Assembly (NCBI GenBank): GCA_049303795.1
Contig: JBAQNM010000005.1
Span: forward strand, 222,381 to 286,380
Origin: Candidatus Moraniibacteriota bacterium
Lineage (GTDB): Bacteria > Patescibacteriota > Minisyncoccia > Moranbacterales > UBA2206
DNA: 64,000 bases
Direction of reading: 5' to 3'
The first letter of the stretch is position 1; each line of letters starts with the position of its first letter. The notes under the pieces are model-generated. The model saw nothing but the letters and a program-made list of their open reading frames with translations, did not search any database and was not told where the DNA came from. Made by a program: the position numbers and the translations under genes. Of this stretch, positions 11,467-63,480 are shown piece after piece.

Positions 11467-11481
11467 AAATTGACAATTAAA

Positions 11482-45767: not shown

Positions 45768-48347
45768 TTATTTAAAACTCTTAACTATGCCCTGAAATTC
45801 ATCTCCTTTTTCTTCAAAATTCTTCCAAAGACTATAGCTTGGAGAAGCCATTGAAAGTAAGCATATTTTTCCAATCTTCGTATTCAAAAAAGCAAAATTG
45901 ACAGCTTCTTTCATGTTTTTTGTATGTATTGTTGTATATTTTTTGTTAGATTTTTGAAGAAGTATTTTTTCAATCTCTGTGCCGCTATCTGGAAAAAAAA
46001 CAATATTTCTTATTTTAGATTTATCAATTTCAATCGCCAAGCCAGAAAAATCATACCCTCGATTAAGCCCCCCTAAAAAAATCGTGTCCACATCGGAAAG
46101 TGTTTTGATTGCTTCAATAGTAGCCTCAGGAATTGTTGCGTTAGCATCATCATAAAATTTTATTCCCTTGAATTCTCCCACAAATTCCAAGCGATGCGGA
46201 AGATTTTTAAAACTTTCGACGCCTTTTTTAATTATCCTCTTTGGAATTTTTAGAATATTAGCAACAGCAATCGCCGCTTTGGCATTTTCCATATTATGCG
46301 CACCCAAAAGCGAAGCTTTTATATTTGCTAAATTAATTTTACTAAAATCATCTGTATTTGTTTTTTTAGCCCATTTTTTTAGCTCTTTATTTTTTCCATT
46401 ATATACAAAATGATCTTCGCGATTTTGAAAATTAATAATATTTTTTTTCGCTGCATAATATTTTTCAACACTGCCATGATAATTCATATGCTCAGGAAAA
46501 AGATTTATTACAACAGAAATATGTGGAGAGTATTTCAGATCATCTAGTTGATAGCTAGAAAGCTCTATGATAAAAATTTCATTCTCATCAATCGGTTTTA
46601 ATAAAACTTCCAACATCGGACTGCCAATGTTACCAATCAAGCGCACCTTCTTCCCGGCCTCTTTTAGAATGGCATAAATCAAAGAGGCTGTCGTGCTTTT
46701 CCCCTTACTTCCGGTCACTCCAATCGTAATATTTTTTATTTGCGAGAAAAAGATGTTAGTCGCCGTAGTATAAGGAATTTTAACCAAATTTTTATTTATT
46801 CCCGGTGATTTTATTGCAAAATCGCAATCTTCCTGTCTTTTTAGGTAATTCTTGTCTAACTTTTGGTCAGCAATAATATATTCTTTTTTTGGATAAAGTT
46901 TTTTTAAAAATTTTAAACTAGCCCTACCTTCAAGCCCATAGCCTAAGATCAATATTTTTCGCCTATCTTCAAAATCATCCAACTCTATACTTGTTTTTTT
47001 AATCATAGCGAGAAATTTTTCAGGAATATTGTTTTCTTCTGAAAAGCCTAATAATTTTTTACTTAAACCTATTTGATCTATTTTTTCAAATAATCCCACT
47101 TTTTCAAAAAATTTAATAACCCCAGCATCTCCAAATTCATTTTTTAAATAAGTCTTTCTTAAGGCCAACTTCATTTCTTCTGCTGTTCCCACACACTCAA
47201 AGGGTTTTATTCTTTTTAAACCTAATAATTCTTCAAATGTTGGCAATAATTTTTTATCCTCAAACAAACTCTTACCAAAAATATCCAACAATTCTTTTTT
47301 AGAAAGATAAGCAGAAAGCATCGTGAAAACAAATACACATTTAGGACAGTGTCCACACCATCTCTTGCCTACTAGATCATCTTTTATTTTAAAATTGGCG
47401 TTACAGCTAGAAAAAGTTTTAAAATATTTTTTATATTTGGAAAAAATCTCCACGATTTTGATTTCACTCAAAGGACGTAGAATTGAAAAGTATAAAACAT
47501 CAGTAGCTATATATTCTTTGACATAATTAGAAAACATTTTTTCAGCCAAAAAAGATTTACTCCACTGATGATTAACCCATCTGCCTAAATATTCTATATT
47601 ACCCTGGCTGGCACTATTTTCGTTAGCAGAAATGATATAACGATAATCATAGATAACAGCTGTAAAAAGACCGATAAATGCCCATTGCAGAGAAACTGGC
47701 ACATGCCCATTATATGCGTCTGGCTTATTTCTGAATTCTAATAATTTTTTATCTAATTCTCTTTTTACCACTATCTTTTTTCCGCCCACCAATGCGGCAA
47801 CTTCTTTTTGAATCTCGGCTTCATTAACAGAAAAAACAGTAAAATCTTTCGCAATTTTTTTCAAGAGTTCCATCGCTACAATAGAATCTTTGCCTCCACC
47901 ATTCATCACAAGCAATCGATCCTGCATTTTTGTTTTTATTGCTTTAGGTTTGTATTTATCATCATAAGAAAAATTAACTAGCCCACGATAATCGATTTTA
48001 TTTTTATAAAAAAATTCACCCATCCCCTCGGTATAAACTAAATTCCAAAATTCAGCCTGCTGCTTAGAAAGTTTAATATTATTTAAAATTATTTTTGAGG
48101 GACAATAAATCTTCCAATAGCTTAAGCCTAAAACCAAATGCAAACCGTCTAATATATTTTTTTGCAAATTTTCATCGAGCTTATTTTCCAAAAAGCCTTT
48201 TTTTGGAAAATATAAGGTTTCACAAAACATATATTTATCTGTTCCTTTTTTCAATCCATAATCAAAAGACAAAGTTGCCTTTGTCTTATCAATTCTATAG
48301 CCTAAAAACTCAAAAATTCCTCCGGTTTGCTTCATATTTTTACCCAT
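45768..48347 (-). CDS. bifunctional fusion: N-terminal PP-loop ATP-pyrophosphatase-like domain (MurL-like?) + C-terminal Mur ligase (MurD-type UDP-MurNAc-L-Ala:Glu ligase)
   Basis: N-terminal about 450 aa with SGGxDS-type PP-loop (LVMNGGGKDSIVA) and a CGHCPKC cysteine cluster. C-terminal about 400 aa with a Mur ligase P-loop GVTGSKGKSTTASL and MurD-like layout (ILILGYGLEGRA.. N-terminal Rossmann). Confidence 0.6.
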   Translation of the reverse strand: MGKNMKQTGGIFEFLGYRIDKTKATLSFDYGLKKGTDKYMFCETLYFPKKGFLENKLDENLQKNILDGLHLVLGLSYWKIYCPSKIILNNIKLSKQQAEFWNLVYTEGMGEFFYKNKIDYRGLVNFSYDDKYKPKAIKTKMQDRLLVMNGGGKDSIVAMELLKKIAKDFTVFSVNEAEIQKEVAALVGGKKIVVKRELDKKLLEFRNKPDAYNGHVPVSLQWAFIGLFTAVIYDYRYIISANENSASQGNIEYLGRWVNHQWSKSFLAEKMFSNYVKEYIATDVLYFSILRPLSEIKIVEIFSKYKKYFKTFSSCNANFKIKDDLVGKRWCGHCPKCVFVFTMLSAYLSKKELLDIFGKSLFEDKKLLPTFEELLGLKRIKPFECVGTAEEMKLALRKTYLKNEFGDAGVIKFFEKVGLFEKIDQIGLSKKLLGFSEENNIPEKFLAMIKKTSIELDDFEDRRKILILGYGLEGRASLKFLKKLYPKKEYIIADQKLDKNYLKRQEDCDFAIKSPGINKNLVKIPYTTATNIFFSQIKNITIGVTGSKGKSTTASLIYAILKEAGKKVRLIGNIGSPMLEVLLKPIDENEIFIIELSSYQLDDLKYSPHISVVINLFPEHMNYHGSVEKYYAAKKNIINFQNREDHFVYNGKNKELKKWAKKTNTDDFSKINLANIKASLLGAHNMENAKAAIAVANILKIPKRIIKKGVESFKNLPHRLEFVGEFKGIKFYDDANATIPEATIEAIKTLSDVDTIFLGGLNRGYDFSGLAIEIDKSKIRNIVFFPDSGTEIEKILLQKSNKKYTTIHTKNMKEAVNFAFLNTKIGKICLLSMASPSYSLWKNFEEKGDEFQGIVKSFK

Positions 48348-48353
48348 TATCTG

Positions 48354-49925
48354 CTAGCGTTTAAGCACTTGTCCATTGCGATTACCATTATATTTCCCAT
48401 CTCTAACCACAATCTCGCCATTAACCACCATAAGCTCAAGTCCTTCGGAATATTGATAAGGATTCTCTGTATTTGCTGGACTGGCAATTTTATCCTGATC
48501 AAGCACAATTATATCAGCAAAATTGCCTTTTTTCAATAGTCCACGTTTTTTCAAATTAAATTTAGAAGCTGGGCCTCCAGTCATCTTATTAATTGCCTCC
48601 TCCCAGCTTAACAGTTTTTCCTTTCGGACATATTTTTCCAACACTTTGATAAATGATCCAAAATTACGCGGATGAACTTTCTCTCCTGTCTTGGAATGAA
48701 AAATATCATATCCAGCTCCATTAGTTGCTACAAAAGACAAAGAATTTCTCAAAGCCTTTCTAATATTTTCCTCACTTAAAACTTCAATTGAGGTGATTAC
48801 CATTCCCTCAGATACAATCAAAATATCAATAACCGTGTCCTCAACTGTTTTTTCCTGACTCTTGGCAATTTCCGCGACACTATGTCTTGTCAAAGTTTTA
48901 TTAAGTGGAGATATAGCAATATTAATTTTGGAATAATCAAATTCTGACGCACGCATTTCTTCAATTACTTTCGCGCGAATAACTGGATCTTTTAAGCGAT
49001 GAAGCATTATCTTTTTTCCACCTTCAGAAACCCAAGCTGGTAAAAAAGAATAAAGCACCGATCCAGTCGAGGTGTAAGGATAAACATCAAATGTGACGTC
49101 TATACCCTCTTCCCTTGCCTGTGTAATCAATTTTAAAGCCTTATCCATTTTTGACCAATTTTTTTCGCCAATAACTTTCAAATGTGATATCTGTAATTTC
49201 ACCCCAGATTCTTTAGCAATTTTTAATGCCTCCTTAATTGCCTGCAAAAACTCTTCTTGCTCTGATCTAATATGCGTTGCATAAACGCCGTCATATTTTT
49301 TAACAATCTTAGCTAGTGCCAAAAGTTCCTCATAGGGAGCCAACCTCGCATGTGAATAAATTAATCCCGTAGACATTCCCAAGGCACCTTCTTTCATAGA
49401 TCTCTCTAGATTTTTTTCGAGCAATTCTGTTTCCTCAGGCGAAAGACTACGGACAAGATCACCAATAATACCTCTTCTTAGTGTTGCATGACCAATTAAC
49501 GTTCCAAAATTGGGTGATAATTTTTTTTCAGAAAGGATGGTAAATAAATCTTTTAAACGTAGCCAGTTGATATTTATTTTTTTAACCTCAACCCATTTTT
49601 GAATTGCATCGATCGTTTCTGGCGAAGCTAGTGGTGCAAGAGATGTTCCACAATTTCCCCCAATAATTGTTGTGATACCCTGATAAATTAAACTTTCCAA
49701 ATGTGGTGTTAAAAAAATTCGCCAATATGTATCACTATGATTATTAACATCGATAAAGCCAGGACAAACTATTTTTCCATTAACATCAATTTCTACGGAT
49801 GCCCTCTCATCACGCAATTCACCAATACTTGAAATTAAATCATCCTTAATTCCAATATCAGCACGATAGGCTGCTTCACCTGATCCGTCAATAATTATTC
49901 CGTTTTTAATAATGATATCGTACAT
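48354..49925 (-). CDS. D-aminoacylase-family amidohydrolase (N-acyl-D-amino-acid deacylase-like); start at internal Met MYDIIIKNG
   Basis: ..IIKNGIIIDGSG.. and the metal-binding GFIDVNNHSD motif typical of N-acyl-D-amino acid deacylases / D-aminoacylase. Confidence 0.7.
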   Translation of the reverse strand: MYDIIIKNGIIIDGSGEAAYRADIGIKDDLISSIGELRDERASVEIDVNGKIVCPGFIDVNNHSDTYWRIFLTPHLESLIYQGITTIIGGNCGTSLAPLASPETIDAIQKWVEVKKININWLRLKDLFTILSEKKLSPNFGTLIGHATLRRGIIGDLVRSLSPEETELLEKNLERSMKEGALGMSTGLIYSHARLAPYEELLALAKIVKKYDGVYATHIRSEQEEFLQAIKEALKIAKESGVKLQISHLKVIGEKNWSKMDKALKLITQAREEGIDVTFDVYPYTSTGSVLYSFLPAWVSEGGKKIMLHRLKDPVIRAKVIEEMRASEFDYSKINIAISPLNKTLTRHSVAEIAKSQEKTVEDTVIDILIVSEGMVITSIEVLSEENIRKALRNSLSFVATNGAGYDIFHSKTGEKVHPRNFGSFIKVLEKYVRKEKLLSWEEAINKMTGGPASKFNLKKRGLLKKGNFADIIVLDQDKIASPANTENPYQYSEGLELMVVNGEIVVRDGKYNGNRNGQVLKR

Positions 49926-50963: not shown

Positions 50964-51236
50964 TTACATTTCAACATTATTAATTTGCCAATGTTCTCCT
51001 GCTATTTTTTTTATATTAAATTTAATATTTTCCAATGGCGTATTTTTAGTAATACTTTTTAAGCCAAACTCTAAATTTTCAATACTCATATCTTCTGCGT
51101 GTTCAGGATGACCATCATGAGCCAAGCTAACCATTCCGATTTCCAAATTGACACTTTTGATTTTGTCTATTTTTTTCTCTTGAATAATTTTTTTCAACTC
51201 ATCAATTATTTCTTTGGCAAGCATAAAATCATGCAT
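50964..51236 (-). CDS. HypA-like hydrogenase nickel-insertion protein N-terminal domain, lacking the zinc-finger; start 1 nt after the dfx stop
   Basis: MHDFMLAKEIIDEL..IKSVNLEIGMVSLAHDGHPEHAEDMSIENLEFGLK.. resembles the HypA metal-binding N-domain (MHE motif) but no CxxC..CxxC. Confidence 0.4.
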   Translation of the reverse strand: MHDFMLAKEIIDELKKIIQEKKIDKIKSVNLEIGMVSLAHDGHPEHAEDMSIENLEFGLKSITKNTPLENIKFNIKKIAGEHWQINNVEM

Positions 51237-51634: not shown

Positions 51635-52933
51635 TTAATGCACTGCACATGAGATACAAGGATCGTATGCGCGAATAAACGCTCTTAGTTTTTTCTCCTG
51701 CTCCTTGCTTTTTAATTTCAAAATTTGCGGAATATACTCAGCAATATCATCTTCTAAGTTTGAGAGAAATTGAGCAGTAGGCGTAATAATATTTACGTTA
51801 CGAATATAACCTCTATGATCAACCTCCACGTGATAATAAAGCGTGCCACGAGGTGCTTCCACTGCTGCCACGCCAAAACCTTCTCTAATTTCATATTTCT
51901 TAGTTAAAACTTCATTCAAATCCAAATTTAGAAGCTCCATTGTTAATTTTCTCGTTTCTTCAATAGCATGAATTACTTCAACCATCTGAGCTAAGATATT
52001 ATGAAAAGGGTTATAATCAGGAAATTTCCAGTCAAGCTCATTTAAATATTTCCCCGCATTATTTCTCAGTTTAATTTTATTATTATTGATTCTGGCAATC
52101 GCGCCTACCATATAACTCACACCTTTATGCTCAACCCGCTTAATCATCTCTTTTTGTTTTTGCAATTCTAGAAAATTAGCTTCAAATTTTTCAACGGGAA
52201 TATGTAGACCGCGATTAGAAATAATATCACCATCATAAATTGCGTATTCACCTTTTTTCGACAAACAGACATATTCTGTTTCACGATAAAAATCAGGAAC
52301 CTTTATTCTCTTAAAGAACCCTCCCAATTCCAAAGCAATTTGCAAAATATTATCAGAATCTTGTACTATTTTTTTCAATGCTTCGCGATCAGGCGCCTTT
52401 TTAAACCCACCCACTTCATTGGTTAGCGGATGTACCACTCGCCCACCGATTACTTTCACAAGTTCCATGCCATATTCGCGAATCTTAATTGCTTTTTTTG
52501 CTTCTTCAGGATGCTCTTTGACTAATTCGATATCATTATCCATATCCAAAAAATCAGCCAGTGATAAAAAAAATAAATGCAAGGCATGTGAATGAATGAG
52601 CTGCGCATATTCCAAAATTGTGCGCAATTTTTCAGTCTCAGGAGAAACCGAAACACCCATCGCATTTTCCAAGGCTTTAATTGAAGTCAAATTATGCACA
52701 ACCGGACAAATTCCACAAATACGTTGAGCAACGAGTGGCATATCTTGATATTCTCGCCCAATCAAGACGCCTTCAATCAAACGAATTCCCTCTTGCACTT
52801 GAAGTTTTGCCGATTTAACATCACCAGAGATGACACTTGCCATAAAACCAGTGTGCCCCTCCATCTTCGCAATGTGATTTATTTTTATATTCATAATGAA
52901 ATTATAACATATTATACAAAAAAATTCTAACAA
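51635..52933 (-). CDS. [NiFe]-hydrogenase large subunit (group 3-like)
   Basis: L1 motif RICGICPVVH and C-terminal L2 motif DPCISCAVH. Confidence 0.85.
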   Translation of the reverse strand: MLEFFCIICYNFIMNIKINHIAKMEGHTGFMASVISGDVKSAKLQVQEGIRLIEGVLIGREYQDMPLVAQRICGICPVVHNLTSIKALENAMGVSVSPETEKLRTILEYAQLIHSHALHLFFLSLADFLDMDNDIELVKEHPEEAKKAIKIREYGMELVKVIGGRVVHPLTNEVGGFKKAPDREALKKIVQDSDNILQIALELGGFFKRIKVPDFYRETEYVCLSKKGEYAIYDGDIISNRGLHIPVEKFEANFLELQKQKEMIKRVEHKGVSYMVGAIARINNNKIKLRNNAGKYLNELDWKFPDYNPFHNILAQMVEVIHAIEETRKLTMELLNLDLNEVLTKKYEIREGFGVAAVEAPRGTLYYHVEVDHRGYIRNVNIITPTAQFLSNLEDDIAEYIPQILKLKSKEQEKKLRAFIRAYDPCISCAVH

Positions 52934-53001: not shown

Positions 53002-53955
53002 TCATTTTATTTTGCAAACTCGTTCCAGCTCAGCAATATCCTCATTAGAGAAAGTAAGCTTTTCCATATTTTGATCACCCATCAAATAATACATAATTGA
53101 TTTTGGATTCTCAACATGTCCCATCCCCAAGCTATGCCCCAATTCATGAATAAGTGTCATGCGTAAATCAGCAACTTGCCTAAATTGATAAATATTAATT
53201 TCCGTCCCAGCATTAACGCCCTTTTCAAACTCCTGAGCTGTTCCATATTTTTCTTTGTAGGTTGATACGTTTGAGTTATAATCATCAACCACTTTTTTTT
53301 CTTGCGAAGCTAAGGCATTAGCTTTTTTGGCAAGTTCATTAACTTCAGCCTGCTCTTTTTGTAATTTATCATAAAAAATATCTAGATCTTTTCTTTCTTT
53401 TTGCAAATCATCCAAATCATTTTGAGATGTTTTATCGCTTTCATTCCATTTTTCAACATCTTTATTATATTGTTTCAATTGATTTTCATATTTAGCTACA
53501 CTAGAGTTATAACTTGCCAAGGCTTTATTATAGCTAATACTTAAAGCATCGTATTGATTATTAATCTTATTTTGTGATAATTTAAGTTGTTCTAGATTTG
53601 TTTCCAGCTCGTCTGTTTCATTTGACTGAATTTGCCTATCATCAAAAATCAAATTAATTTTAAAGCTGGCTTTAGGATTATAGAAAAATACCTTTCTTTC
53701 AAGCTGACCACTCCAAATATTCTGCGCCTCATCAATAATTTTCAAAAAAGAAGCTTCGTCAATGTTAAAGCGTGGGTCAATAATGCCTATTGAATATTCT
53801 ATTGGTTTCGAACACGGTAAACCTAATCCTGTAAATTCTTGGATTTTATTGCCTATCTTTACAGCTTGTTTATTTACCTCAACTTTGTTTTTAAAAATTA
53901 TTCCCCAAACAGAAAAAAGTAGAATAATTATTAGATATTGAAAAAATTTTTTCAT
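53002..53955 (-). CDS. membrane-anchored zinc metalloprotease (matrixin/M10-like HExxHxxGxxH) with a coiled-coil region
   Basis: HELGHSLGMGH zinc-binding motif plus Met-turn (SIMYY); N-terminal TM helix. Confidence 0.6.
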   Translation of the reverse strand: MKKFFQYLIIILLFSVWGIIFKNKVEVNKQAVKIGNKIQEFTGLGLPCSKPIEYSIGIIDPRFNIDEASFLKIIDEAQNIWSGQLERKVFFYNPKASFKINLIFDDRQIQSNETDELETNLEQLKLSQNKINNQYDALSISYNKALASYNSSVAKYENQLKQYNKDVEKWNESDKTSQNDLDDLQKERKDLDIFYDKLQKEQAEVNELAKKANALASQEKKVVDDYNSNVSTYKEKYGTAQEFEKGVNAGTEINIYQFRQVADLRMTLIHELGHSLGMGHVENPKSIMYYLMGDQNMEKLTFSNEDIAELERVCKIK

Positions 53956-53978: not shown

Positions 53979-54866
53979 TTACTTTTTAACTCCCCTCTCT
54001 CGCGCCTCCAAATCATCGCGCAAACCAAAAATTTCAGTCATATTTTGAAATTGCTCATCACTCATCATATTTTTTAGCATTGCACGCATAGCAGGAACAT
54101 TCCCTGTCGGTCGTAGTCCACGACAACCTTGACATTGCGCACGAGAACTTGGACAAGTTGCACCACAACCACCCAAAATCATTGGCCCAAAGCATGGCTT
54201 TTTATCCAATAATAAGCAACGATTTCCTGCTCTCTTGCATTCCACGCAAACGGGGGAATCAGGAATGGTGGGAACATTTCCTTTAAGTAGCTCTGGAGCG
54301 TATTGCAAAAATTCCTCACCATTAATTGGACAACCTGGAAACACAAAATCTACCTTAACAAAATTATCAATCTCGCGGATTTCCGGATTATTAATGCCAT
54401 GGATATATTTATAAACATGCTTGATCGTGCTAACTCCCTCGTGATAATTTTTAATCTCTGGCACACCACCCATTGCCGCACAATTTCCCAATGCCGCCAA
54501 CATTTTTGAACGTTTCCTTGCTTGTTTCAATGTTTTAATATTTTCTTCTGTCACTGGATTTCCTTCTATCAAAACTAAATCCAAAAGACCACCGTCATCT
54601 TCTTCGTCTTCAATCAAACGAAAATCCACTAACTCCACTGTCTTAGCAAAATCCAAAAAACGGGTGCCAAGATCCAACAATACAAATTGACAGCCCTCAC
54701 AAGAAGTAAGACTAATAATAGCCACCCGCGGTTTTTTAAATACTATTTTCTTTTTTGTTACTTTTTTAATTTTAACCTTTTCAGTAGCTGGTTTTATTTT
54801 AGTCACTTTTTTCACTTTTGGTTTTTTAACACTTGTCTTTTTTTCAGACTTTTTTTGAATTTCCAT
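53979..54866 (-). CDS. [NiFe]-hydrogenase small subunit (NuoB-like fold) with a Lys-rich N-terminal extension
   Basis: ..AIISLTSCEGCQFVLLDLG.. proximal-cluster Cys ligands (CxxC..C..GCP) and additional Cys clusters for the medial and distal FeS clusters. Confidence 0.65.
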   Translation of the reverse strand: MEIQKKSEKKTSVKKPKVKKVTKIKPATEKVKIKKVTKKKIVFKKPRVAIISLTSCEGCQFVLLDLGTRFLDFAKTVELVDFRLIEDEEDDGGLLDLVLIEGNPVTEENIKTLKQARKRSKMLAALGNCAAMGGVPEIKNYHEGVSTIKHVYKYIHGINNPEIREIDNFVKVDFVFPGCPINGEEFLQYAPELLKGNVPTIPDSPVCVECKRAGNRCLLLDKKPCFGPMILGGCGATCPSSRAQCQGCRGLRPTGNVPAMRAMLKNMMSDEQFQNMTEIFGLRDDLEARERGVKK

Positions 54867-55050: not shown

Positions 55051-55995
55051 CTACTGACATTTATTTACGCTGCAAACACCATTTGTTTTTACAGATGCAC
55101 AATCCCTGGTTGATGTTCCAATAGTTTTATCGCTCTTGCAATAATATTCTACAATAGAATTACCGCTACAATGATCATAGGCTGGACTAATTTGCCCTCC
55201 TATAGTTGGAGAAAAACTAACATTACCACCAACTAATGGAGTATTTCCACCATCAGTATCAGAACAACCTACACATTTATTTGTACTACAAGCGCCTCCA
55301 GACAAAATACTACCGCAATCCTTCGTATATGTTCCAAGGGTTTTATCGCTCTTGCAATAATATTCTACAATAGAATTACCGCTACAATGATCGTAGGCTG
55401 GACTAATTTGTCCTCCTATAGTTGGAGAAAAACTGGTATTTCCTCCAACCAATGGCTTGTCTCCACCATCAGTTTCAGAACAACTTCTCGTAGGAGTTGG
55501 TGAAGGCTTAGGCGTTGGTATTGGAGTTGGAGTAATTTTCGGCGTTGTTGTTGGAGTTGGAGTAGGAATCTTATCATAAGTAGGAGAAACAGAAACCCAC
55601 ACAGGCATAGAATACTGCCCAGCAGAATCTTTAACACGTAAAGTTATCCAAACTAAACTTCCTGGGTTAAATGTTTTGGTGCAAGTTTTTCCAGTGCAAA
55701 TAACAGGGCCAGAACCACATTCTCCTTGAGAATTAAACCATTCATATACATATCCAGTGCCTGAACCACCAGTTGCTCTTCCTTTAAAAGTCACCGGCAC
55801 GCCATATTGAACCTTTGCCCCATTTGCTGGATAATCAATATAAGCCGTAGGTCTCGGTAGATTAGGATTGTTTTTTAAGTATCTACCATAAACACCAGCC
55901 ATTATTCCACCAACACTAATCACTGCAATAGCAATTGCCACAATAGTGCCAGTTTTTACTTTTGTTTTAGTTTTTGTTGTTGTCGCTTGTTTCAT
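55051..55995 (-). CDS. secreted Cys-rich protein with a PT linker and a tandemly duplicated about 70-aa Cys-rich module
   Basis: Signal/TM helix; TPTPTTTPKITPTPIPTPKPSPTPT linker; two near-identical modules (SxTDGG..PLVGGN.SFSPTIGGQISPAYDHCSGNSIVEYYCKSDKT.GT.T.DC). Confidence 0.5.
   Translation of the reverse strand: MKQATTTKTKTKVKTGTIVAIAIAVISVGGIMAGVYGRYLKNNPNLPRPTAYIDYPANGAKVQYGVPVTFKGRATGGSGTGYVYEWFNSQGECGSGPVICTGKTCTKTFNPGSLVWITLRVKDSAGQYSMPVWVSVSPTYDKIPTPTPTTTPKITPTPIPTPKPSPTPTRSCSETDGGDKPLVGGNTSFSPTIGGQISPAYDHCSGNSIVEYYCKSDKTLGTYTKDCGSILSGGACSTNKCVGCSDTDGGNTPLVGGNVSFSPTIGGQISPAYDHCSGNSIVEYYCKSDKTIGTSTRDCASVKTNGVCSVNKCQ
55120..55500. repeat. tandem direct repeat (about 216 bp x about 1.8, >90% identical) inside CDS 55051..55995
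   Basis: ttttatcgctcttgcaataatattctacaatagaattaccgctacaatgatc(a/g)taggctggactaatttg(c/t)cctcctatagttggagaaaaact... occurs twice. Confidence 0.8.
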
Positions 55996-56124: not shown

Positions 56125-57093
56125 TCAACTCTTGACTTCTCGGTATTCCTTTGCAATCTGAATCACATCCGCAGTTTTTACCTCTGGAGTGAGCTTACAT
56201 TTTTTTGAATCATTATTAATACATCCCATTCTGGCTTTGCTAGATGCTTCATCCATGAGATCTATCGCCTTGTCAGGAAATGACCTATCGGGCAACATTT
56301 TTTCTGATTGGTCTATACAGGTTTGGATAACTTTTTCTGAAATCCTAACATCATGAAAGGATTCATATTTACTTTTAATTCCTTTGAGAATTTCAAAAGT
56401 ATCTTTTTTATTAGGCTCTTTGACAAATATTGGTTGCATTCTTCTCTTAAAAGCCAAGTCGGCATGGAAATATCGGTCATATTCTTCTTTGGTAGTTGCT
56501 CCGATTATTTGCAATTCTCCTCTTGCCATTGCCGGCTTAAAAATATCTCCGACTGAAACCGATTCCCCTGAACTCTCTGCTTGAATAAGATTATGTATCT
56601 CATCAATAAAAAGAATTATATTTCTTTTCGAATTAGATATTTCATCAGTCAGCTTGCGCACTCTTTCTTCAAATTCACCACGATATTTTGTTCCAGCCAA
56701 AAGAGCATTGAGATCAAGCATTAAAACTCTTTTACCAAAAAGACTTGTTGGAACATTTTTCTCGGAAACATTATGCGCTAAGCCTTCAACAATAGTTGTC
56801 TTACCAACACCAGCGTCTCCAATAAGCACAGCGTTATTCTTAGTTCTGCGACTTAAAACCATTATCAAATGATTTATTTCTTTTTCTCTGCCAATCACCG
56901 GATCAAGCTGTTTTTTTCTAGCTAACTCAGTTATGTCTTTTGAAAAGCTGTTTATAATCGGCGTGGTAACAAAAATCTTAGTTGCTTTGTTTCTTGAAAA
57001 TCTAAATAATAAGTATCCCAAAATAACTATTGCGACTATAGCCATCCATGGAATTGGATTATCATATGCAGAAAGTAGATCTATTTTTGTCAT
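56125..57093 (-). CDS. membrane-anchored Clp/Hsp100-type AAA+ ATPase consisting of a D1-like module only
   Basis: N-terminal TM helix; ..NAVLIGDAGVGKTTIVEGLA.. Walker A, ..VLMLDLNALLAGTKYRGEFEERVRKL.., Walker B IILFIDEIHNLI; no D2 module. Confidence 0.6.
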   Translation of the reverse strand: MTKIDLLSAYDNPIPWMAIVAIVILGYLLFRFSRNKATKIFVTTPIINSFSKDITELARKKQLDPVIGREKEINHLIMVLSRRTKNNAVLIGDAGVGKTTIVEGLAHNVSEKNVPTSLFGKRVLMLDLNALLAGTKYRGEFEERVRKLTDEISNSKRNIILFIDEIHNLIQAESSGESVSVGDIFKPAMARGELQIIGATTKEEYDRYFHADLAFKRRMQPIFVKEPNKKDTFEILKGIKSKYESFHDVRISEKVIQTCIDQSEKMLPDRSFPDKAIDLMDEASSKARMGCINNDSKKCKLTPEVKTADVIQIAKEYREVKS

Positions 57094-57189
57094 GTTTATT
57101 TTTTTATTTTTTAAGCAAAATCTGCCAATAAATTAATTATACCACAACTTCCTCTTATCGCAACATTATTATATACTTAAAATACACCC

Positions 57190-58305
57190 ATGAAAATAAC
57201 AACCTCCATAAAACATACTAACAAAAAGAATATTCTTGCTCTCGGCGCCGAATCCGCTGGAAATTTTTCGGTTTTTAAGAATGGTGAAATTTATTTCTCT
57301 GAAGATTTTGGCGACTTATTAGAAGAAACTAATTGGGAGAATTATCAGATTTCAGTTTTAACTTACTTAAAAACTAACCAGATTAAGCCAGAAATAATTC
57401 TAACTGATCTTCATCCCCTATACAAAACTACGACTTGGGGAAAAGAACTAGCTAAGAAATATCACGCAAAACTTCTTCCAATTCAGCATCATCATGCTCA
57501 TATTTTTTCTGTTATTGGAGATAAAATGCTTTATTCTAAGAGCTACAAGTCAAAAACTACAAACTATGGCATTGCCATGGATGGTACTGGATATGGTACA
57601 GATGAAAAGATTTGGGGCGGAGAAGTATTTAAAGTTAAGGGAAAAGAAATTCTAAGAATCGGACATTTGGAAAATCAAATTATACTTGGTGGAGATTTAG
57701 CTGTCAAAGAGCCAGCTAGAATGTTAATTGGAGTGTTAAGTAAAATATTAAGCAACAAAGAAATCTACCCTTTCATCAGAAAATATTATACCAGAAATCA
57801 ATTTGAATTATTATACAATCAGCTCTCGCAAAATTTTAACTGCCAAGAAACTTCTAGCACTGGAAGAATTTTAGACGCTGTTTCTTTACTTTTAGGTTTT
57901 TGTAATAATGAAAGAAAACACAAGCACGAACCAATTAATTTGCTAGAAAAAAATTCAACTGTTCCCTATTCTGATTTAATACCAAAAATAATTTTTGATG
58001 AAAAAGAAAAAATATATATTTTACAAACTACTCCACTTTTTAAATATTTAATTAAAAATATAAATAAAGACAAGAAAAAATTAGCTGCCACGGCGCAACT
58101 TTACATTGCTAAAGGTTTATACGAAATTATAAAATTGAAAACTAAAAGCCAGAAACCAGAAACTTTTTTTATTTCTGGTGGTATATCAAATAATAAAATA
58201 ATTTCTTCTTTCTTGGAGTCCAAAGGCGCATATGTAAATAAAAAAATCCAACGTGGTGACGCCGGACTTTCTTTTGGGCAAGTTGTTAAATACTTATTAA
58301 ATTAG
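57190..58305 (+). CDS. HypF C-terminal Kae1/TsaD-like carbamoyltransferase domain as a stand-alone protein
   Basis: ..LALGAESAGNF.., ..DLHPLY.., ..LPIQHHHAHIFSV.., ..AMDGTGYGTDEKIWGGEV.. match the HypF C-terminal domain; no acylphosphatase, Zn-finger or YrdC domains. Confidence 0.6.
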   Translation: MKITTSIKHTNKKNILALGAESAGNFSVFKNGEIYFSEDFGDLLEETNWENYQISVLTYLKTNQIKPEIILTDLHPLYKTTTWGKELAKKYHAKLLPIQHHHAHIFSVIGDKMLYSKSYKSKTTNYGIAMDGTGYGTDEKIWGGEVFKVKGKEILRIGHLENQIILGGDLAVKEPARMLIGVLSKILSNKEIYPFIRKYYTRNQFELLYNQLSQNFNCQETSSTGRILDAVSLLLGFCNNERKHKHEPINLLEKNSTVPYSDLIPKIIFDEKEKIYILQTTPLFKYLIKNINKDKKKLAATAQLYIAKGLYEIIKLKTKSQKPETFFISGGISNNKIISSFLESKGAYVNKKIQRGDAGLSFGQVVKYLLN

Positions 58306-59316
58306 TCAGCATATCCTCGGAATCAGCTTCCCTCTAGGCACTTCGATTTTTTTGACAGAGCCAATTTTAGTTTTCAACCAAACGCCCCTGCCCGCCTCAT
58401 TACGCGAAGCATTATGGGTGGGTCTTTGCACTTCCCCAATAATCTTAGCGCTTTTATTAAATTTTTGAAGAATTTGAATAACTTTCTTAGAATCTTTTTT
58501 TGACACCGTTGCTACAAATCTACCTTCGGACGGAAAAGAAAAAACGTCAATGCCAAGTAGTTCTGAAATAGCAATTGTTTCTTTTTTAAATGACAAATTT
58601 TTTTCTTCCAAAACAAATTTGGTTTTGGATTTTTCTGCCATTTCATTGAGCACCGCCGCCATACCACCGCGTGTTGGATCTTTGCAAGAAGTTAGATATT
58701 TTGAAACTGCTTGAATTTCACAAATTAACGGTTGGCAATCGCTTTTTATTTTTGTTTGATAATTAAATCGTTTCGCCAAAAGCGCCACCGCATGTTCGCC
58801 AAGATCTCCAGAAACTATTATATCATCCCCTGCTTTTGCACCGGCATTGGAAATTATATTAGAAGCCAGCCCCACTCCCGAAGTAGTGATTTCAATTTTG
58901 TCGATCTTGCCTTTTTCCGTTACTTTAGTGTCTCCCGTCACAATTGGCACGCCCGTTTCTTTAGAAATCTTCTGAATTGAATTTATTATTTTTTCTAAAT
59001 CACTTTCCAAAAATCCTTCTTCAATTACAATACTCAAAGACAATCCAATTGGTTTGGCGCCCATCACTGACAAATCATTCAGTGTTCCACAAATCGCAAT
59101 TTTTCCAATATCGCCTCCGGGAAAAAACAACGGATCAACAATAAAAGCATCCGTCGTGAAAACTAATTTTTCTTTTCCCAAATCAAAAACTGCTCCGTCA
59201 TCAGCCGTGTTTTTCCATTTTCCTTTTACATTCAAAATGCTTCTTATGTTTCCAATAAGTTCTTCGGATTTTTTTCCTCCTCCGCCCATTTCAAGCTCGA
59301 TTATTTTGTTTTTCAT
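58306..59316 (-). CDS. hypE: hydrogenase maturation protein HypE (start at internal Met MKNKIIELEMGGGG)
   Basis: PurM-like fold and C-terminal PRIC motif. Confidence 0.85.
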   Translation of the reverse strand: MKNKIIELEMGGGGKKSEELIGNIRSILNVKGKWKNTADDGAVFDLGKEKLVFTTDAFIVDPLFFPGGDIGKIAICGTLNDLSVMGAKPIGLSLSIVIEEGFLESDLEKIINSIQKISKETGVPIVTGDTKVTEKGKIDKIEITTSGVGLASNIISNAGAKAGDDIIVSGDLGEHAVALLAKRFNYQTKIKSDCQPLICEIQAVSKYLTSCKDPTRGGMAAVLNEMAEKSKTKFVLEEKNLSFKKETIAISELLGIDVFSFPSEGRFVATVSKKDSKKVIQILQKFNKSAKIIGEVQRPTHNASRNEAGRGVWLKTKIGSVKKIEVPRGKLIPRIC

Positions 59317-59320
59317 AAAG

Positions 59321-60355
59321 TTATTCGGTGAAACGAAAATTAATACTACAACTCCCCTCCCTCGAAACCATGCACGCGCCTTGCGGATTTTCCGGTGTGC
59401 AAACTTTTCCAAAAAGTGGACAATCTTTTGATTCAATTAATCCTTGCAAAACCTCACCACAACGACAAACACTTTTTTTAGGTTTGATTTCTTTTTTTAT
59501 TTTTACAATCATCTCTCGATGAATAAATTCCGCGTCTTGCAATTGATATTTTTTTCGAATTTTTAGTCCGGAATTTTTGATTTCTCCCAAACCTCGCCAA
59601 GAAGCATTTCTAACTTCAAAAACTTCGGAAATTAAATCTAACGCTTTTTTGTTTCCATCCTTTTTCACTAGTCTCGTATATTCATTTTCAACTTTTTTTT
59701 CTCCAGCAATTATTTGCTTCAAAAGCATTTCAATCGCCAGAAGAACATCTTCTGCGCTAAATCCAGCTACCACCTGTGGGATTGGAAATTTTTCATAGAC
59801 TTCTGTGCCGATAATTGCACTGACGTGTCCTGGATTAATAAATCCGTCGATTTTGATTTTATTATTTTTCAGTAGCGCCTCCATTGCTGGCGGAAAAAGT
59901 TTGTGCGACGAAAAAACTGTAAGCTTATTTTGAATTCCCCAAGCCGTCATCACAGTTGTTGTTTCAAAGCCAATTCCCCAAAAAACTAAATTGGGAATTT
60001 TTTTGGAAAGCTCCAGCGCTTCAGTTACATCATAAACAATATGCACTTGTGCGCCCTCTTGCCTGGCATTTTCCAAGCTTCCCAAACTCCCTGGAATATT
60101 AGTGGCGTCGCCATAGCAAGCAATCGGAATACCTGAAAGTGCCAGGCCAGTTACCACATCAATTTCACTTTGATCAGTCACACAAACCGGACAACCCGGA
60201 CCAGTAATCAGTTTTATATTTTCCGGCAAAATATTTTTTATTCCGTGCTTGGCAATCGCCTCACTGTGCGTTCCGCAAAGTTCCATAAAACGAAGTGGCC
60301 GATTTATTTTTTCAGCTTTAGTTTGAATATTTTTTAATATTTTTTTATAATCCAT
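59321..60355 (-). CDS. hypD: hydrogenase maturation protein HypD
   Basis: CGTH, GPGCPVC, and C-terminal FeS Cys motifs. Confidence 0.85.
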   Translation of the reverse strand: MDYKKILKNIQTKAEKINRPLRFMELCGTHSEAIAKHGIKNILPENIKLITGPGCPVCVTDQSEIDVVTGLALSGIPIACYGDATNIPGSLGSLENARQEGAQVHIVYDVTEALELSKKIPNLVFWGIGFETTTVMTAWGIQNKLTVFSSHKLFPPAMEALLKNNKIKIDGFINPGHVSAIIGTEVYEKFPIPQVVAGFSAEDVLLAIEMLLKQIIAGEKKVENEYTRLVKKDGNKKALDLISEVFEVRNASWRGLGEIKNSGLKIRKKYQLQDAEFIHREMIVKIKKEIKPKKSVCRCGEVLQGLIESKDCPLFGKVCTPENPQGACMVSREGSCSINFRFTE

Positions 60356-60542
60356 ATTCAGATAGTTTTTCAACATAATCCTTCTCCATCTTTTCAATCG
60401 CAAAACCGGCATGCACCATCACATAATCACCAACCTTAACATCAACGATGCTTATATTTATTTCTTTTTGCACGCCCTGAAACTCAACTGTTGCCAGATG
60501 GTTATTGATTTTTATGATTTTTCCTGGAATTGCTAGGCACAT
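60345..60542 (-). CDS. hypC: hydrogenase maturation protein HypC
   Basis: N-terminal MCLAIPGK. Confidence 0.8.
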   Translation of the reverse strand: MCLAIPGKIIKINNHLATVEFQGVQKEINISIVDVKVGDYVMVHAGFAIEKMEKDYVEKLSEYGL

Positions 60543-60543
60543 A

Positions 60544-60664
60544 ATTCAGAACCACAGATTATCACATGAATTCACATGATTTCACTGATTATATTATAAT
60601 TAATTATTTTGACTTTAAAATTCAGTGCTTTCAGGATAATCAGTGTTAATCAGTGGTTCTGAAT
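60544..60664. promoter_or_regulatory. about 120-bp imperfect palindrome filling the whole hoxU-hypC intergenic space, built from 10-bp-periodic TGATTAnCAC-like units in inverted orientation
   Basis: attcagaaccac (60544-55) with gtggttctgaat (60653-64) as perfect 12-bp termini. Inside, agattatcac / atgaattcac / atgatttcac on the left mirror aggataatca / gtgttaatca on the right. Confidence 0.55.
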
Positions 60665-61714
60665 TTTCCCTATTTTTATTTTCTCCTTATCCCTCGCTAA
60701 CCTCGCCACTTCGCGCTCACTAAGCACATAATCTAAATACTTGTCTATATTTTTCTTTTTGTCTATTTTGGAAGAAATAAAAAATACAACAATATCTTTC
60801 GGATTTATTTTTTCACGCTTAGCATATTCCGTTTTAACATTTTCGATAACTTCGTCTTCCGATTTTTCCTTTTCTAATTTTATAATCTTCTCGAAACCCA
60901 AATCTGAAAGCAACTTATTTAAATTCTTTTCCGGTTTTATTTTTTGTGTTTGCGCTAAAACTTTTTCCTCTATTTCAAAATCCAAAACCGCCACCGAAAA
61001 CTTTTTGAGATCATCCAGAATCTCTACTATTTTTCTATAATCATTCTGATCAGTAAGCGCTGCAGTGGGACATGCTCGCACACAACGCCCACAAAAACTA
61101 CAATCCAGAACTTCCTCATAGGGCGTCCCAACAACGACCGCGCCTCCTCGCAGATTAAACCCAAACTTTTTTTCCGGACAAATATTAATACATCTTCGAC
61201 ATTCAATACAAAGTTCGCTATTCCTGGAAATACACGGATTTTCATTTTCCACAACTACCCGCGACCAATTATCACGAATCAAGCCCAACTCTTCTTGCCC
61301 GGTTATTTCTCCTTTCCTCGGAATGAAATGAAAATTTTCAATTTTATATTCCAACGCCAAATTTTGCAATTCGCACATTTGATTTTTCTTGCAAGTCGCG
61401 CATTTTCCAGCGTGATCTGCCCAAAGCAGTTCTAGATTTATTCTTCTGGCTTTGTTTATATCTTCACTTTCCGTAATCACTTCCATCCCGTCTTTAACTT
61501 TCAAGATGCAGGAAGGCTGTAAACTCGTACGGACAGGTTTTAAACCTGTCCCTCCACTTCTTATTCCCACCAAACACAAGCGGCAAACCGCTCCGCGCAA
61601 AAGATCTTCAAAAGCACAAAGTGTGGGAATTCTAATTTCATTTTTTCGACACACATCCAAAACAGACTCCCCGAGCTTAGCTGTATATTTTTTATTGTTG
61701 ATTTTTATTTGCAT
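60650..61714 (-). CDS. HoxU/NuoG-N-terminal-like diaphorase iron-sulfur subunit (2Fe-2S + 4Fe-4S clusters)
   Basis: 2Fe-2S ferredoxin Cys pattern (C..C..C..C), a His/Cys 4Fe-4S motif (CATCKKNQMC) and two CxxCxxCxxxCP ferredoxin motifs. Confidence 0.7.
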   Translation of the reverse strand: MQIKINNKKYTAKLGESVLDVCRKNEIRIPTLCAFEDLLRGAVCRLCLVGIRSGGTGLKPVRTSLQPSCILKVKDGMEVITESEDINKARRINLELLWADHAGKCATCKKNQMCELQNLALEYKIENFHFIPRKGEITGQEELGLIRDNWSRVVVENENPCISRNSELCIECRRCINICPEKKFGFNLRGGAVVVGTPYEEVLDCSFCGRCVRACPTAALTDQNDYRKIVEILDDLKKFSVAVLDFEIEEKVLAQTQKIKPEKNLNKLLSDLGFEKIIKLEKEKSEDEVIENVKTEYAKREKINPKDIVVFFISSKIDKKKNIDKYLDYVLSEREVARLARDKEKIKIGKIQNH

Positions 61715-61724
61715 AAATAAAAAT

Positions 61725-62912
61725 TTAAAATATTTCTAATTTTTCCACCGCGTCTCGAAATGCTGTTGCCGCAAACTTCCCCAAAGGACAAAAAGTCGTA
61801 TTTTCCAATGTCCATAAAATATCATTGACTGCTATTTTATCACGATCAGAAATTTTCCCATCCTGCAAACGCTGTGCGATTTCATCGAGACGAAAAGTTC
61901 CTTCCCGACACGGCACACACTTTCCGCAAGATTCCCGCCGAAAAAAACCAGACCAAGACAATAATAGCTCGTAAATATTAACTGTTTTATCTACCACTAA
62001 AATTGCTCCGGATCCAGTCACAGGAACATCTAATTCTTTTTCTAGAAATAATTTACCTGACGCTCCCCCAACTTGAGCAAACCAAAATTCTTTTCCTCTT
62101 TGCACGCCTCCGCCCAATTCCTCTATCGCCTCTCTTATTGTAATATTCATCGATGCCTCAAAAACTCCCTGCTTTTTTACTGCGCCACCAAGTATAAATA
62201 GCTTAGGATTAATTTTAGCATATTTTTTTCCACCATTTTTAATAATCCAGGGAATATTAGCAATTGTTTCGGCATTATTCACGACTGTCGGCTTACCAAA
62301 AAGACCACATTCTGTTGGATATGGCGGACGAATCTTCGGCTCTCCCCGATTACCTTCGATAGAATTTATCAATGCCGTTTCTTCACCGCAGATATAAGCG
62401 CCAGCTCCAGAAAAAATTTCCACTTCCAAGGAATATTCGGCGTCTAATATTTTATTTCCCAAAAACTTATTTTCATGCGCTTGAATGATTGCCTGCTCTA
62501 AAATTATTTTAGCTTTTTCATAATTACCATTAAGATAGATGTAGGCTTTTTTTGCGCCGATCGTAAGCGCAGAAATGATTATTCCTTCCAAAATTAAATG
62601 AGGATTATTTTCTGCAAGCATTCTGTCTTTATATGTTCCCGGTTCTGATTCATCCAGATTACAAATAAAATATTTTTCCTTGCTTTTTTGTGCCATAGCT
62701 AACTCCCATTTTGCACCTGTTGAAAAACCCGCACCACCCCTTCCGCAAAGTCCAGAAAGTTTTATTTCCTCCAAGGCTTTTTGTGAATTAATTTTCGAAA
62801 TAAACTTCTTAAAGGCTTCATATCCGCCAACCTTTAAATAGTCCTCAATTTTCAAAGGATTAATTTTGCCCCAATGTTCAGTTATTATTTTTATATTATC
62901 CATGTTTGTCAT
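61725..62912 (-). CDS. HoxF/NuoF-like NAD(P)H-binding flavoprotein subunit (start probably ATG at 62912 or 62903, not the track's GTG at 62927)
   Basis: GLCGRGGAGFSTGAKW (FMN/NADH site) and ESCGKCVPCREG 4Fe-4S motif. Confidence 0.85.
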   Translation of the reverse strand: MTNMDNIKIITEHWGKINPLKIEDYLKVGGYEAFKKFISKINSQKALEEIKLSGLCGRGGAGFSTGAKWELAMAQKSKEKYFICNLDESEPGTYKDRMLAENNPHLILEGIIISALTIGAKKAYIYLNGNYEKAKIILEQAIIQAHENKFLGNKILDAEYSLEVEIFSGAGAYICGEETALINSIEGNRGEPKIRPPYPTECGLFGKPTVVNNAETIANIPWIIKNGGKKYAKINPKLFILGGAVKKQGVFEASMNITIREAIEELGGGVQRGKEFWFAQVGGASGKLFLEKELDVPVTGSGAILVVDKTVNIYELLLSWSGFFRRESCGKCVPCREGTFRLDEIAQRLQDGKISDRDKIAVNDILWTLENTTFCPLGKFAATAFRDAVEKLEIF

Positions 62913-63015
62913 TCCCGTCCCGAGCACTCGGGACGGGAATCTAGTATGAAAATTTAAAATTTATGACCGGATTCCCGTTGGAATTTATCCTCGTGAAACA
63001 GGGGCGAGAATGACA
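62907..63015. mobile_element. MITE-like GC-rich intergenic element with about 17-24-bp imperfect terminal inverted repeats and an internal perfect 14-bp hairpin
   Basis: Termini tgtcattcccgtcccgag and ctcgtgaaacaggggcgagaatgaca (reverse complement tgtcattctcgcccctg..). Internal attcccgtcccgag-ca-ctcgggacgggaat (62911-40) and gattcccg repeat. Sits exactly between hoxE and hoxF. Confidence 0.4.
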
Positions 63016-63480
63016 CTATAAATACCCCTCTAAAATGCTATGGATTGAATTTTTAGTCACTCTCTCAAAAAACTTTTCATTTATCACAACTACTGGTCCT
63101 TCTCCGCAACGCCCCAGACAACTGATTATTTCCAGTTTTACCTTCGGATTAAATTCATCTCCGGCTTTAATTCTAAAATAATTTTCAATTTCACGAACAA
63201 TGCTATTTGAATCACTTAGAACACAATGCGTTCCAGAGCAAACTTTGATTACCAAATTAGCTGTTTTTTCTGTTTTAATTAAATCGTAAAAACTAGCTGT
63301 TTCATAAATTTCAGATAACGGCAGAGAAAAATAATTTGCCACTTTTTGCATATCCTTCTTGGAAATATAACTAAAAACTTTGTTAATTTCTTTTAGCGTT
63401 GCAACTATGTTTTTTTTCTCTGGATCAAAATGCAATAGAATTTTTTCAACTGTTTTATGCATAGAACTAGGTCTTGTCAT
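63016..63480 (-). CDS. HoxE/NuoE-like thioredoxin-fold 2Fe-2S subunit
   Basis: CSGTHC .. CLGRCGEGP 2Fe-2S motif. Confidence 0.75.
   Translation of the reverse strand: MTRPSSMHKTVEKILLHFDPEKKNIVATLKEINKVFSYISKKDMQKVANYFSLPLSEIYETASFYDLIKTEKTANLVIKVCSGTHCVLSDSNSIVREIENYFRIKAGDEFNPKVKLEIISCLGRCGEGPVVVINEKFFERVTKNSIHSILEGYL

Follow-up and report, generated by a model that had tools for sequence, protein, structure and literature searches.

The four-domain HypF protein has been regarded as obligatory for the synthesis of the CN ligands of [NiFe] hydrogenases, with HypF1 of Cupriavidus necator as the single known exception. Here, we describe another case, a hypF gene at positions 57190..58305 (plus strand) of a 64,000-nucleotide stretch of contig JBAQNM010000005.1 from a Candidatus Moraniibacteriota bacterium (this whole 64-kb stretch is referred to below as the window). 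Analysis of this open reading frame (ORF) confirmed that its product of 371 amino acids (aa) consists solely of the Kae1-like domain of HypF, in complete form, and that this is the result of neither chance nor artifact. This Kae1-only architecture is the standard form of a large clade of the Candidate Phyla Radiation (CPR) and is not peculiar to the present genome. It has been known since 1998 from Cupriavidus necator, and the window HypF belongs to the same HypF1-type kind, which is defined by architecture and not by clade. Both the precedent and the breadth of the distribution had been missed in an earlier, sequence-only reading of this DNA. On sequence grounds, we consider it very likely that the protein is a minimal HypF in both identity and function, its enzymatic activity being predicted from conservation, and rather probable that it works with an activation step supplied in trans.

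A HypF gene reduced to the Kae1-like domain

Searches of the 371-aa product with Pfam profiles delimited two regions, HypF_C (residues 11 to 110; E value of 7.4e-24) and HypF_C_2 (residues 127 to 364; E value of 4.4e-48), and no further Pfam domain above threshold. The NCBIfam hypF model TIGR00143 aligns residues 8 to 367 to profile positions 386 to 739 of 741 only, and its score of 237 bits lies below the equivalog cutoff of 466.1, as would be expected of the C-terminal half of HypF on its own. Both resources agree with the sequence-only reading, which had assigned the protein to the C-terminal Kae1-like domain of HypF on the strength of the motifs HHHAH and DGTGYG..IWGGE; these are all located in the product (IQHHHAHIF at residues 98 to 106, DGTGYG at 131 to 136, and IWGGE at 141 to 145). 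That reading had further noted that the acylphosphatase, twin Zn-finger, and YrdC-like domains were absent and that HypC, HypD, and HypE (with its PRIC end) were intact nearby. The former observation holds for the protein, the window, and its flanks, and the latter is borne out by scores above the equivalog cutoffs for all three proteins (see below).

The hypF frame is open for just 3 codons 5' of the ATG (six-frame piece 57181 to 58302). Upstream lies an AT-rich intergenic sequence of 96 bp (57094..57189), and beyond it is the divergent gene for a ClpB-D1-like protein (56125..57093, minus strand). A six-frame scan of 57094..57189 with hidden Markov models (HMMs) found no remnant of the N-terminal domains of HypF. 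An identical 371-aa gene, annotated as Candidatus Moraniibacteriota, is present on independent contigs from an NCBI metagenome-assembled genome (MAG) and from Logan, representing several samples, and for this reason the short form is not an assembly artifact.

Fold, active site, and family identity

A phmmer search against PDB sequences recovered HypF chains only, with that of Thermococcus kodakarensis (4G9I; 1e-43) at the top, followed by 3VTH and 3TSP. The AlphaFold2 model of the window HypF, computed with 58 clade members, has a mean predicted local distance difference test (pLDDT) score of 93.4 and a predicted template modeling (pTM) score of 0.91. In Foldseek searches, it matched the Kae1-like domains of HypF (3vth, 4g9i, and 3tsq) with query-normalized template modeling scores (TMq) of 0.85 to 0.87 and root mean square deviations of 2.4 to 3.0 Å, the corresponding TMq values being about 0.5 for TsaD/Kae1 and 0.41 to 0.44 for TobZ. 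The predicted metal ligands, H100, H104, D131, and D357, align to H475, H479, D502, and D727 of Escherichia coli HypF. More generally, 51 four-domain HypFs have 36 positions with a conservation of at least 90%, and the window protein keeps all of them save for a Tyr-to-His change at position 244, and 55 alignment columns are invariant over the 58 clade members.

The TsaD-type models give scores far below their cutoffs (21.2 versus 296.1 for TIGR03723, 25.1 versus 207.8 for TIGR00329, and 16.8 versus 24.8 bits for PF00814), and Pfam detects neither Carbam_trans_N (PF02543) nor PF01300 in the protein. In a neighbor-joining (NJ) tree of Kae1 domains, the window protein falls inside HypF and E. 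coli TsaD is a distant long-branch outgroup. The sequence-only reading had left the choice between HypF and TsaD/Kae1 proper to phylogeny, and the tree settles it in favor of HypF, a grouping with TsaD being excluded. The window protein is a HypF transfer domain under conservation that is far from both TsaD/Kae1 and TobZ. Because the whole transfer site and the partner HypE are retained, it would be expected to perform the last step of the HypF reaction, the transfer.

A distinctive sequence feature of the CPR short-HypF clade maps to residues 244 to 247 (approximately 57919 to 57930), where the Y-E-G-(E/Q) motif of four-domain HypFs (residues 614 to 617 in E. coli HypF, with the Gly present in 88% of these proteins) is replaced by (Y/H)-K-H-E. 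Of the 33 clade members, 30 have His246, a residue that no four-domain protein shares. None of the other Kae1-only lineages compared, that of C. necator HypF1 included, has the K-H signature.

Distribution of the Kae1-only form and arrangement of its loci

The best 120 clusters (90% identity) related to the window protein are all Kae1-only, with lengths of 359 to 505 aa (median, 386). Where names are given, they point to Moraniibacteriota/Moranbacteria, Parcubacteria, Terrybacteria, and Patescibacteria, and one cluster is annotated "hypF1." The domain is complete and begins no more than 45 residues from a Met start in 113 of the 120. An exhaustive HMMER search of 50%-identity representatives gave 5,361 matches, and the best 150 of these comprise, among others, 46 complete Kae1-only and 49 four-domain proteins. 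With E. coli TsaD as the root, the NJ tree puts the window protein in a large clade of Kae1-only proteins that is itself nested within the four-domain HypFs. Support was measured as constraint-style bootstrap counts, exact-clade NJ bootstraps being uninformative; by this measure, a 27-member CPR core clade is free of sequences bearing N-terminal domains in 175 of 200 replicates. The nearest four-domain relatives, which are 39 to 49% identical to the window HypF, come from a member of the Moraniibacteriota (L029), from the locus P0140/L016, and from DPANN archaea, e.g., Aenigmarchaeota. Of these, L029 and P0140/L016 have CPR-like hydrogenase or hyp contexts, and P0140/L016 has bacterial-type neighbors and the same small-subunit, large-subunit, and HypA genes.

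In the window, hypF is convergent with, and directly abuts, hypE (58306..59322, minus strand; TIGR02124, 339.8 bits; cutoff, 251.6), whose product ends in PRIC. It is followed by hypD (59321..60376, minus strand; TIGR00075, 397.5 bits; cutoff, 192.8), which is also a gene call in the NCBI MAG contig L005, and by hypC (60345..60542, minus strand; TIGR00074, 68.3 bits; cutoff, 48), whose product starts with MCLAIPG. The same convergence of hypF with hypE-hypD-hypC is seen in all of the CPR short-form loci examined (L009, L011, L013, L018, and L020 to L025), usually beside hydrogenase genes, and the CPR loci with a four-domain hypF (L028 and L029) have an identical arrangement. Association with hypC, hypD, hypE, and a [NiFe] hydrogenase extends to the window gene and to every related locus examined. 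That the short hypF takes up the position orthologous to that of the full-length gene suggests an in situ N-terminal deletion rather than an extra paralog. Taken as sequence evidence, these patterns point to an origin of the short form in a patescibacterial lineage whose hypF cleanly lost its acylphosphatase, zinc-finger, and YrdC-like domains. In the searchable literature, we found no paper linking HypF truncation to the CPR or DPANN.

Kae1-only genes also occur outside the CPR. In Omnitrophota, such a hypF is the first gene of a hypF-hypC-hypD-hypE-hypA operon beside a group 4-type hydrogenase, and all 200 bootstrap replicates keep this lineage apart from the CPR clade. In a Woesearchaeota locus (L035), the Kae1 domain follows about 160 N-terminal residues without a recognizable domain; as these extra residues are part of the longest ORF, we rejected this protein as a clean short form and class it as "Kae1-only or degenerate." A further relative (P0169) has kept a faint acylphosphatase remnant. 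Together, the CPR, Cupriavidus, and Omnitrophota cases, with those of L035 and P0169, indicate that loss of the N-terminal domains has been recurrent.

As a separate observation on these loci, a 485-kb related patescibacterial contig (L009) carries a reverse transcriptase gene and a bAvd-like gene between the short hypF and hypE (11117 to 12536), a pair that is the hallmark of a diversity-generating retroelement.

Search for the missing domains

The DNA searched comprises the window and flanks of about 10 kb on its left and about 4 kb on its right, i.e., about 78 kb of this genome; the flanks carry housekeeping genes only. The window was analyzed with Pfam (about 57 ORFs) and by tblastn with E. 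coli HypF, E. coli TsaC, and C. necator HypF2 as queries. In addition, acylphosphatase, Zn-finger, YrdC, and Kae1 HMMs were built from 51 four-domain HypFs and run on six-frame translations; the YrdC HMM picks up E. coli TsaC and is, hence, reasonably sensitive. For acylphosphatase (PF00708), neither HypF nor any window ORF gave a Pfam match, and the six-frame HMM returned E values of at least 3.2. The zinc finger (PF07503, zf-HYPF) is absent from HypF, and its best six-frame match in the window (E value of 0.56) is also the best off-target match overall. For YrdC/Sua5 (PF01300), there was no match, the YrdC HMM giving E values of at least 1.1 across the window and tblastn with E. coli TsaC giving values of at least 0.38. 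Within the approximately 78 kb, we found no second hypF, four-domain or otherwise, no second Kae1-like domain, and no TsaD.

We then extended the six-frame domain HMMs to about 90 related loci and detected no missing domain adjoining any short-form hypF; in the CPR short-form loci, no gene for a YrdC, acylphosphatase, or Zn-finger domain lies within 10 kb. When the N-terminal region of a four-domain HypF from Moraniibacteriota served as the query, no HypF naturally split into two genes came to light. The top list of this search seems biased toward short or partial proteins, and the match lengths carry no conclusion. The N-terminal-only matches that we followed up were rejected as frameshift fragments of full-length hypF genes: in L100, hypE is broken as well; L101 has a broken full-length hypF; and in L109, several other genes are split. 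Public assemblies, thus, contain hypF genes frameshifted into an N-terminal acylphosphatase-Zn-finger-YrdC ORF and Kae1 fragments, which could be mistaken for natural splits.

Several recurrent neighbors were considered as partners for the short HypF and set aside. The genes for the amidohydrolase, glyceraldehyde-3-phosphate dehydrogenase, superoxide reductase, and M10 peptidase recur in closer relatives only and are best seen as lineage synteny because they are absent from L013, L018, L024, and L035. A haloacid dehalogenase (HAD) hydrolase gene beside the short hypF (L018, 11112 to 11813) and a pair of arginase family and pyruvoyl arginine decarboxylase genes beside the hypF of an Omnitrophota contig (L107, 8279 to 9911) are each confined to one lineage.

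Proposed function and source of activated carbamoyl

In canonical HypF, the acylphosphatase/Zn-finger/YrdC part turns carbamoyl phosphate and ATP into carbamoyl-adenylate (PMC9654439). The account that we favor, and hold to be rather probable, is that the window protein is a functional minimal HypF1-type HypF whose activated substrate is supplied in trans. The predicted His-His-Asp-Asp metal site and the associated nucleotide site would bind an activated carbamoyl, most likely carbamoyl-adenylate, and the protein would pass the carbamoyl to the C-terminal cysteine of the adjacently encoded HypE (PRIC). HypE would then dehydrate it to a thiocyanate, the likely source of the CN ligands that are put together on HypC-HypD and destined for the neighboring [NiFe] hydrogenase. 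As the activating domains are lacking, the conversion of carbamate or carbamoyl phosphate and ATP to carbamoyl-AMP would have to take place in trans. In synthesis of the tRNA modification threonylcarbamoyladenosine (t6A), the YrdC-type TsaC and the Kae1-type TsaD are separate proteins and the labile acyl-adenylate is passed between them in trans (PMC9654439), which is the very arrangement that would be required of a Kae1-only HypF. This makes a stand-alone YrdC family enzyme (Sua5/TsaC), already suggested in the sequence-only reading, a natural candidate, and, by analogy with the passage of threonylcarbamoyl-AMP from TsaC to TsaD, it may be the likeliest supplier; we offer this identification tentatively and consider it a possibility short of an even chance. 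The domain identity, the retained active site, the clade-wide conservation, the orthologous position, and the hypCDE and hydrogenase linkage are observed, whereas the enzymatic activity, the kind of donor, and the supplier are points that we infer.

A number of considerations weigh against this account, the first being that free carbamoyl-AMP is expected to be labile. A Sua5/TsaC gene was not seen within the approximately 78 kb inspected, and a four-domain hypF or a separate N-terminal module may lie elsewhere in the genome. The function proposed for the short HypF of the CPR is read from sequence and predicted structure. The four-domain HypF is known to channel the intermediate between its domains (PMC9654439). 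Further, E. coli hypF mutants were not rescued by C. necator HypF1 even though E. coli has TsaC (PMC5350229, PMC9100943), which, with the production of HypF1 unconfirmed in those experiments, weakly argues against a generic supply by TsaC.

Alternatively, the short hypF could be an auxiliary paralog, as in C. necator, with activation performed by a four-domain hypF product or by a separate acylphosphatase/Zn-finger/YrdC module encoded elsewhere. Such a situation has precedents, in that C. necator carries both HypF1 and a four-domain HypF2 (pHG1 has a third HypF-like match) and some Moraniibacteriota have a four-domain hypF (L029), and it is compatible with our view of about 78 kb of this genome. 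However, the short gene is found, convergent with hypEDC, just where related genomes have the four-domain gene, which points to replacement and not duplication. Moreover, none of the best 80 of 596 matches is a second hypF locus from the six CPR short-form species-representative assemblies, a CPR-type N-terminal query brought up four-domain genes that were partial or frameshifted but never an intact module standing alone, and the genomes with the short form are small. On these grounds, we regard an auxiliary role as unlikely.

Another conceivable solution is a self-sufficient Kae1-like domain, which would either use ATP to activate its substrate (carbamate or carbamoyl phosphate) within its own acetate and sugar kinase/Hsc70/actin (ASKHA) superfamily nucleotide site or transfer the carbamoyl directly from carbamoyl phosphate to HypE. 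The independent emergence of Kae1-only HypFs in the CPR, Cupriavidus, and Omnitrophota, each still linked to hypCDE, would be in keeping with such a capability, as would the lack of any nearby partner in the CPR and Omnitrophota loci scanned and the Kae1-only or degenerate form of the Woesearchaeota locus; the CPR-private (Y/H)-K-H-E signature, whose His246 is shared by 30 of 33 members, could provide an extra residue for catalysis or binding. Yet, adenylate formation in a Kae1-type site is without known precedent, the adenylate being made by a YrdC-type site in HypF, in TobZ, and in t6A synthesis (PMC9654439), and the absence of the K-H signature from the other Kae1-only lineages, HypF1 included, means that it is not a general requirement. 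Self-activation, accordingly, strikes us as rather improbable.

The possibility that the gene encodes a decaying remnant or a misread TsaD-like t6A enzyme, for which one could cite the score below the TIGR00143 cutoff and the weak TsaD match in Pfam (16.8 bits), is highly improbable and already contradicted by catalytic positions that are invariant throughout the clade, by its tight linkage, at every locus, to hypCDE and hydrogenase genes that are intact, and by TsaD scores, fold, and tree alike. The least probable reading, an assembly or gene-calling artifact, draws on the existence of frameshift-split hypF genes in public assemblies (L100, L101, and L109) and has a negligible chance, being already contradicted by the identical gene on independent contigs from several samples, the opposite-strand 5' neighbor only 96 bp away, the lack of N-terminal coding remnants in all six frames, and the complete, Met-initiated Kae1-only proteins in 113 of the 120 closest clusters.

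Returning to the minimal, trans-supplied HypF, its conservation across the CPR suggests that the three N-terminal domains may be dispensable in some cells, provided that no full-length copy is encoded elsewhere. A bolder formulation, which we consider possible though less than probable, is that no HypF other than the Kae1-only protein exists in a large patescibacterial clade, in Omnitrophota (as an independent case), and perhaps in some DPANN archaea, with the essential t6A enzyme Sua5/TsaC moonlighting as carbamoyl-adenylate synthase or the Kae1 domain activating its own substrate (in the CPR, possibly via Lys245/His246). If this is the case, CN ligand synthesis runs without acylphosphatase, Zn-finger, and YrdC domains and the textbook four-domain HypF is not the minimal machinery. 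Should these genomes, instead, prove to encode a full-length hypF elsewhere, the finding would be an ordinary one. The search for the carbamoyl-activating step is narrowed to the gene set of small patescibacterial genomes, and the CPR loci are candidate minimal Hyp sets for heterologous hydrogenase production.

Hydrogenase and other genes of the window

The [NiFe] hydrogenase genes associated with hypF are all on the minus strand. The large subunit (51635..52894) is recognized by Pfam NiFeSe_Hases and, below the cutoff, by the NCBIfam ShyA/HydA models (about 232 bits); the small subunit (53979..54866) is recognized by Pfam Oxidored_q6 and, again below the cutoff, by a sulfhydrogenase delta model (151 bits), and it bears a Lys-rich N-terminal extension of about 45 aa. 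HoxU-like, NuoF/HoxF-like, and NuoE/HoxE-like electron transfer subunits, identified with Pfam and NCBIfam, are encoded at 60650..63480. Judged by its sequences, the hydrogenase looks like a mosaic: the large and small subunits best match the alpha and delta subunits of archaeal-type sulfhydrogenases (group 3b-like), albeit below the cutoffs, and the electron transfer genes resemble the NuoE/NuoF/HoxU genes of NAD-linked bidirectional enzymes.

The remaining maturation genes are few. A reduced HypA-like protein of 90 aa (50964..51236, minus strand; also a gene call in L005) matches Pfam HypA over profile positions 1 to 70 of 112 (32 bits). It keeps the N-terminal MHD and has no cysteines at all, so that the zinc domain (two CxxC motifs) of canonical HypA is missing, and the same reduced HypA was found again in related CPR loci. 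Neither HypB nor a maturation endopeptidase has a Pfam match in the window, and the large subunit ends in DPCISCAVH, without a cleavable C-terminal extension. The combination of a short HypF, a short HypA, and no HypB or endopeptidase in the window looks like a generally pared-down maturation set.

The hydrogenase/hyp cluster is broken up by three unrelated minus-strand genes. These encode an M10 (matrixin-like) peptidase (53002 to 53955); a Thr/Pro-rich protein with an internal duplication (55051 to 55995), which is 10 aa shorter in the NCBI MAG contig L005; and the aforementioned membrane-anchored protein with a single ClpB-D1-like AAA+ module (56125 to 57093), which is the divergent neighbor of hypF in L020 too (88% identity). 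Farther away, a minus-strand gene (45768 to 48347) codes for an 859-aa fusion of a MurL-type UDP-MurNAc-L-Ala-L-Glu epimerase and a MurD-type ligase. It is adjoined by a gene for an Amidohydro_3 protein (48354 to 49925), which is syntenic in several relatives, and this amidohydrolase may be cell wall related. A 590-aa ORF on the minority strand (21941 to 23713, plus strand) has no Pfam match and coincides with the only strong local GC/AT skew reversal of the window (22 to 24 kb).

Comparison with known systems

The canonical four-domain HypFs, prototyped by the E. coli protein, T. kodakarensis 4G9I, and Caldanaerobacter subterraneus 3VTH/3VTI, share with the window HypF the Kae1-like fold, the metal ligands, and nearly all of the highly conserved positions, and their partners HypE, HypD, and HypC are encoded beside the window gene as well. 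What sets them apart is their acylphosphatase, Zn-finger, and YrdC-like domains and the interdomain channel, all of which the window protein lacks. In TobZ/NodU/CmcH, a Kae1-like domain likewise moves carbamoyl from carbamoyl-AMP, but these proteins fuse it to a C-terminal YrdC-like domain that has no counterpart in the window HypF. TsaD/Kae1/Qri7, with TsaC/Sua5, offer the parallel of a trans handover but differ in the acceptor, which is A37 of tRNA, whereas that of HypF is a protein cysteine.

The closest counterpart in architecture is HypF1 of C. necator (Ralstonia eutropha) H16, a 394-aa protein encoded on the megaplasmid pHG1. It has the same two Pfam domains with the same boundaries (HypF_C at residues 11 to 111 and HypF_C_2 at 120 to 368), aligns over residues 1 to 369 to residues 1 to 365 of the window HypF at about 26% identity, and is the product of a hyp operon gene adjacent to hypCDE. 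It has been described as a truncated HypF that "likely requires carbamoyl adenylate" (PMC9100943) and as unusually truncated and inactive in complementation of E. coli hypF (PMC5350229). With a full-length copy in the same organism and no activity in E. coli, it has stood as a biochemical loose end. Its origin is independent of that of the CPR form: in the tree, HypF1 pairs with its own four-domain paralog, HypF2, and at least 20 four-domain HypFs come between it and the window protein in 200 of 200 NJ bootstraps. The two cases also differ in genomic setting, in that HypF1 exists alongside the four-domain HypF2, whereas the short form of the CPR sits at the place of the four-domain gene.

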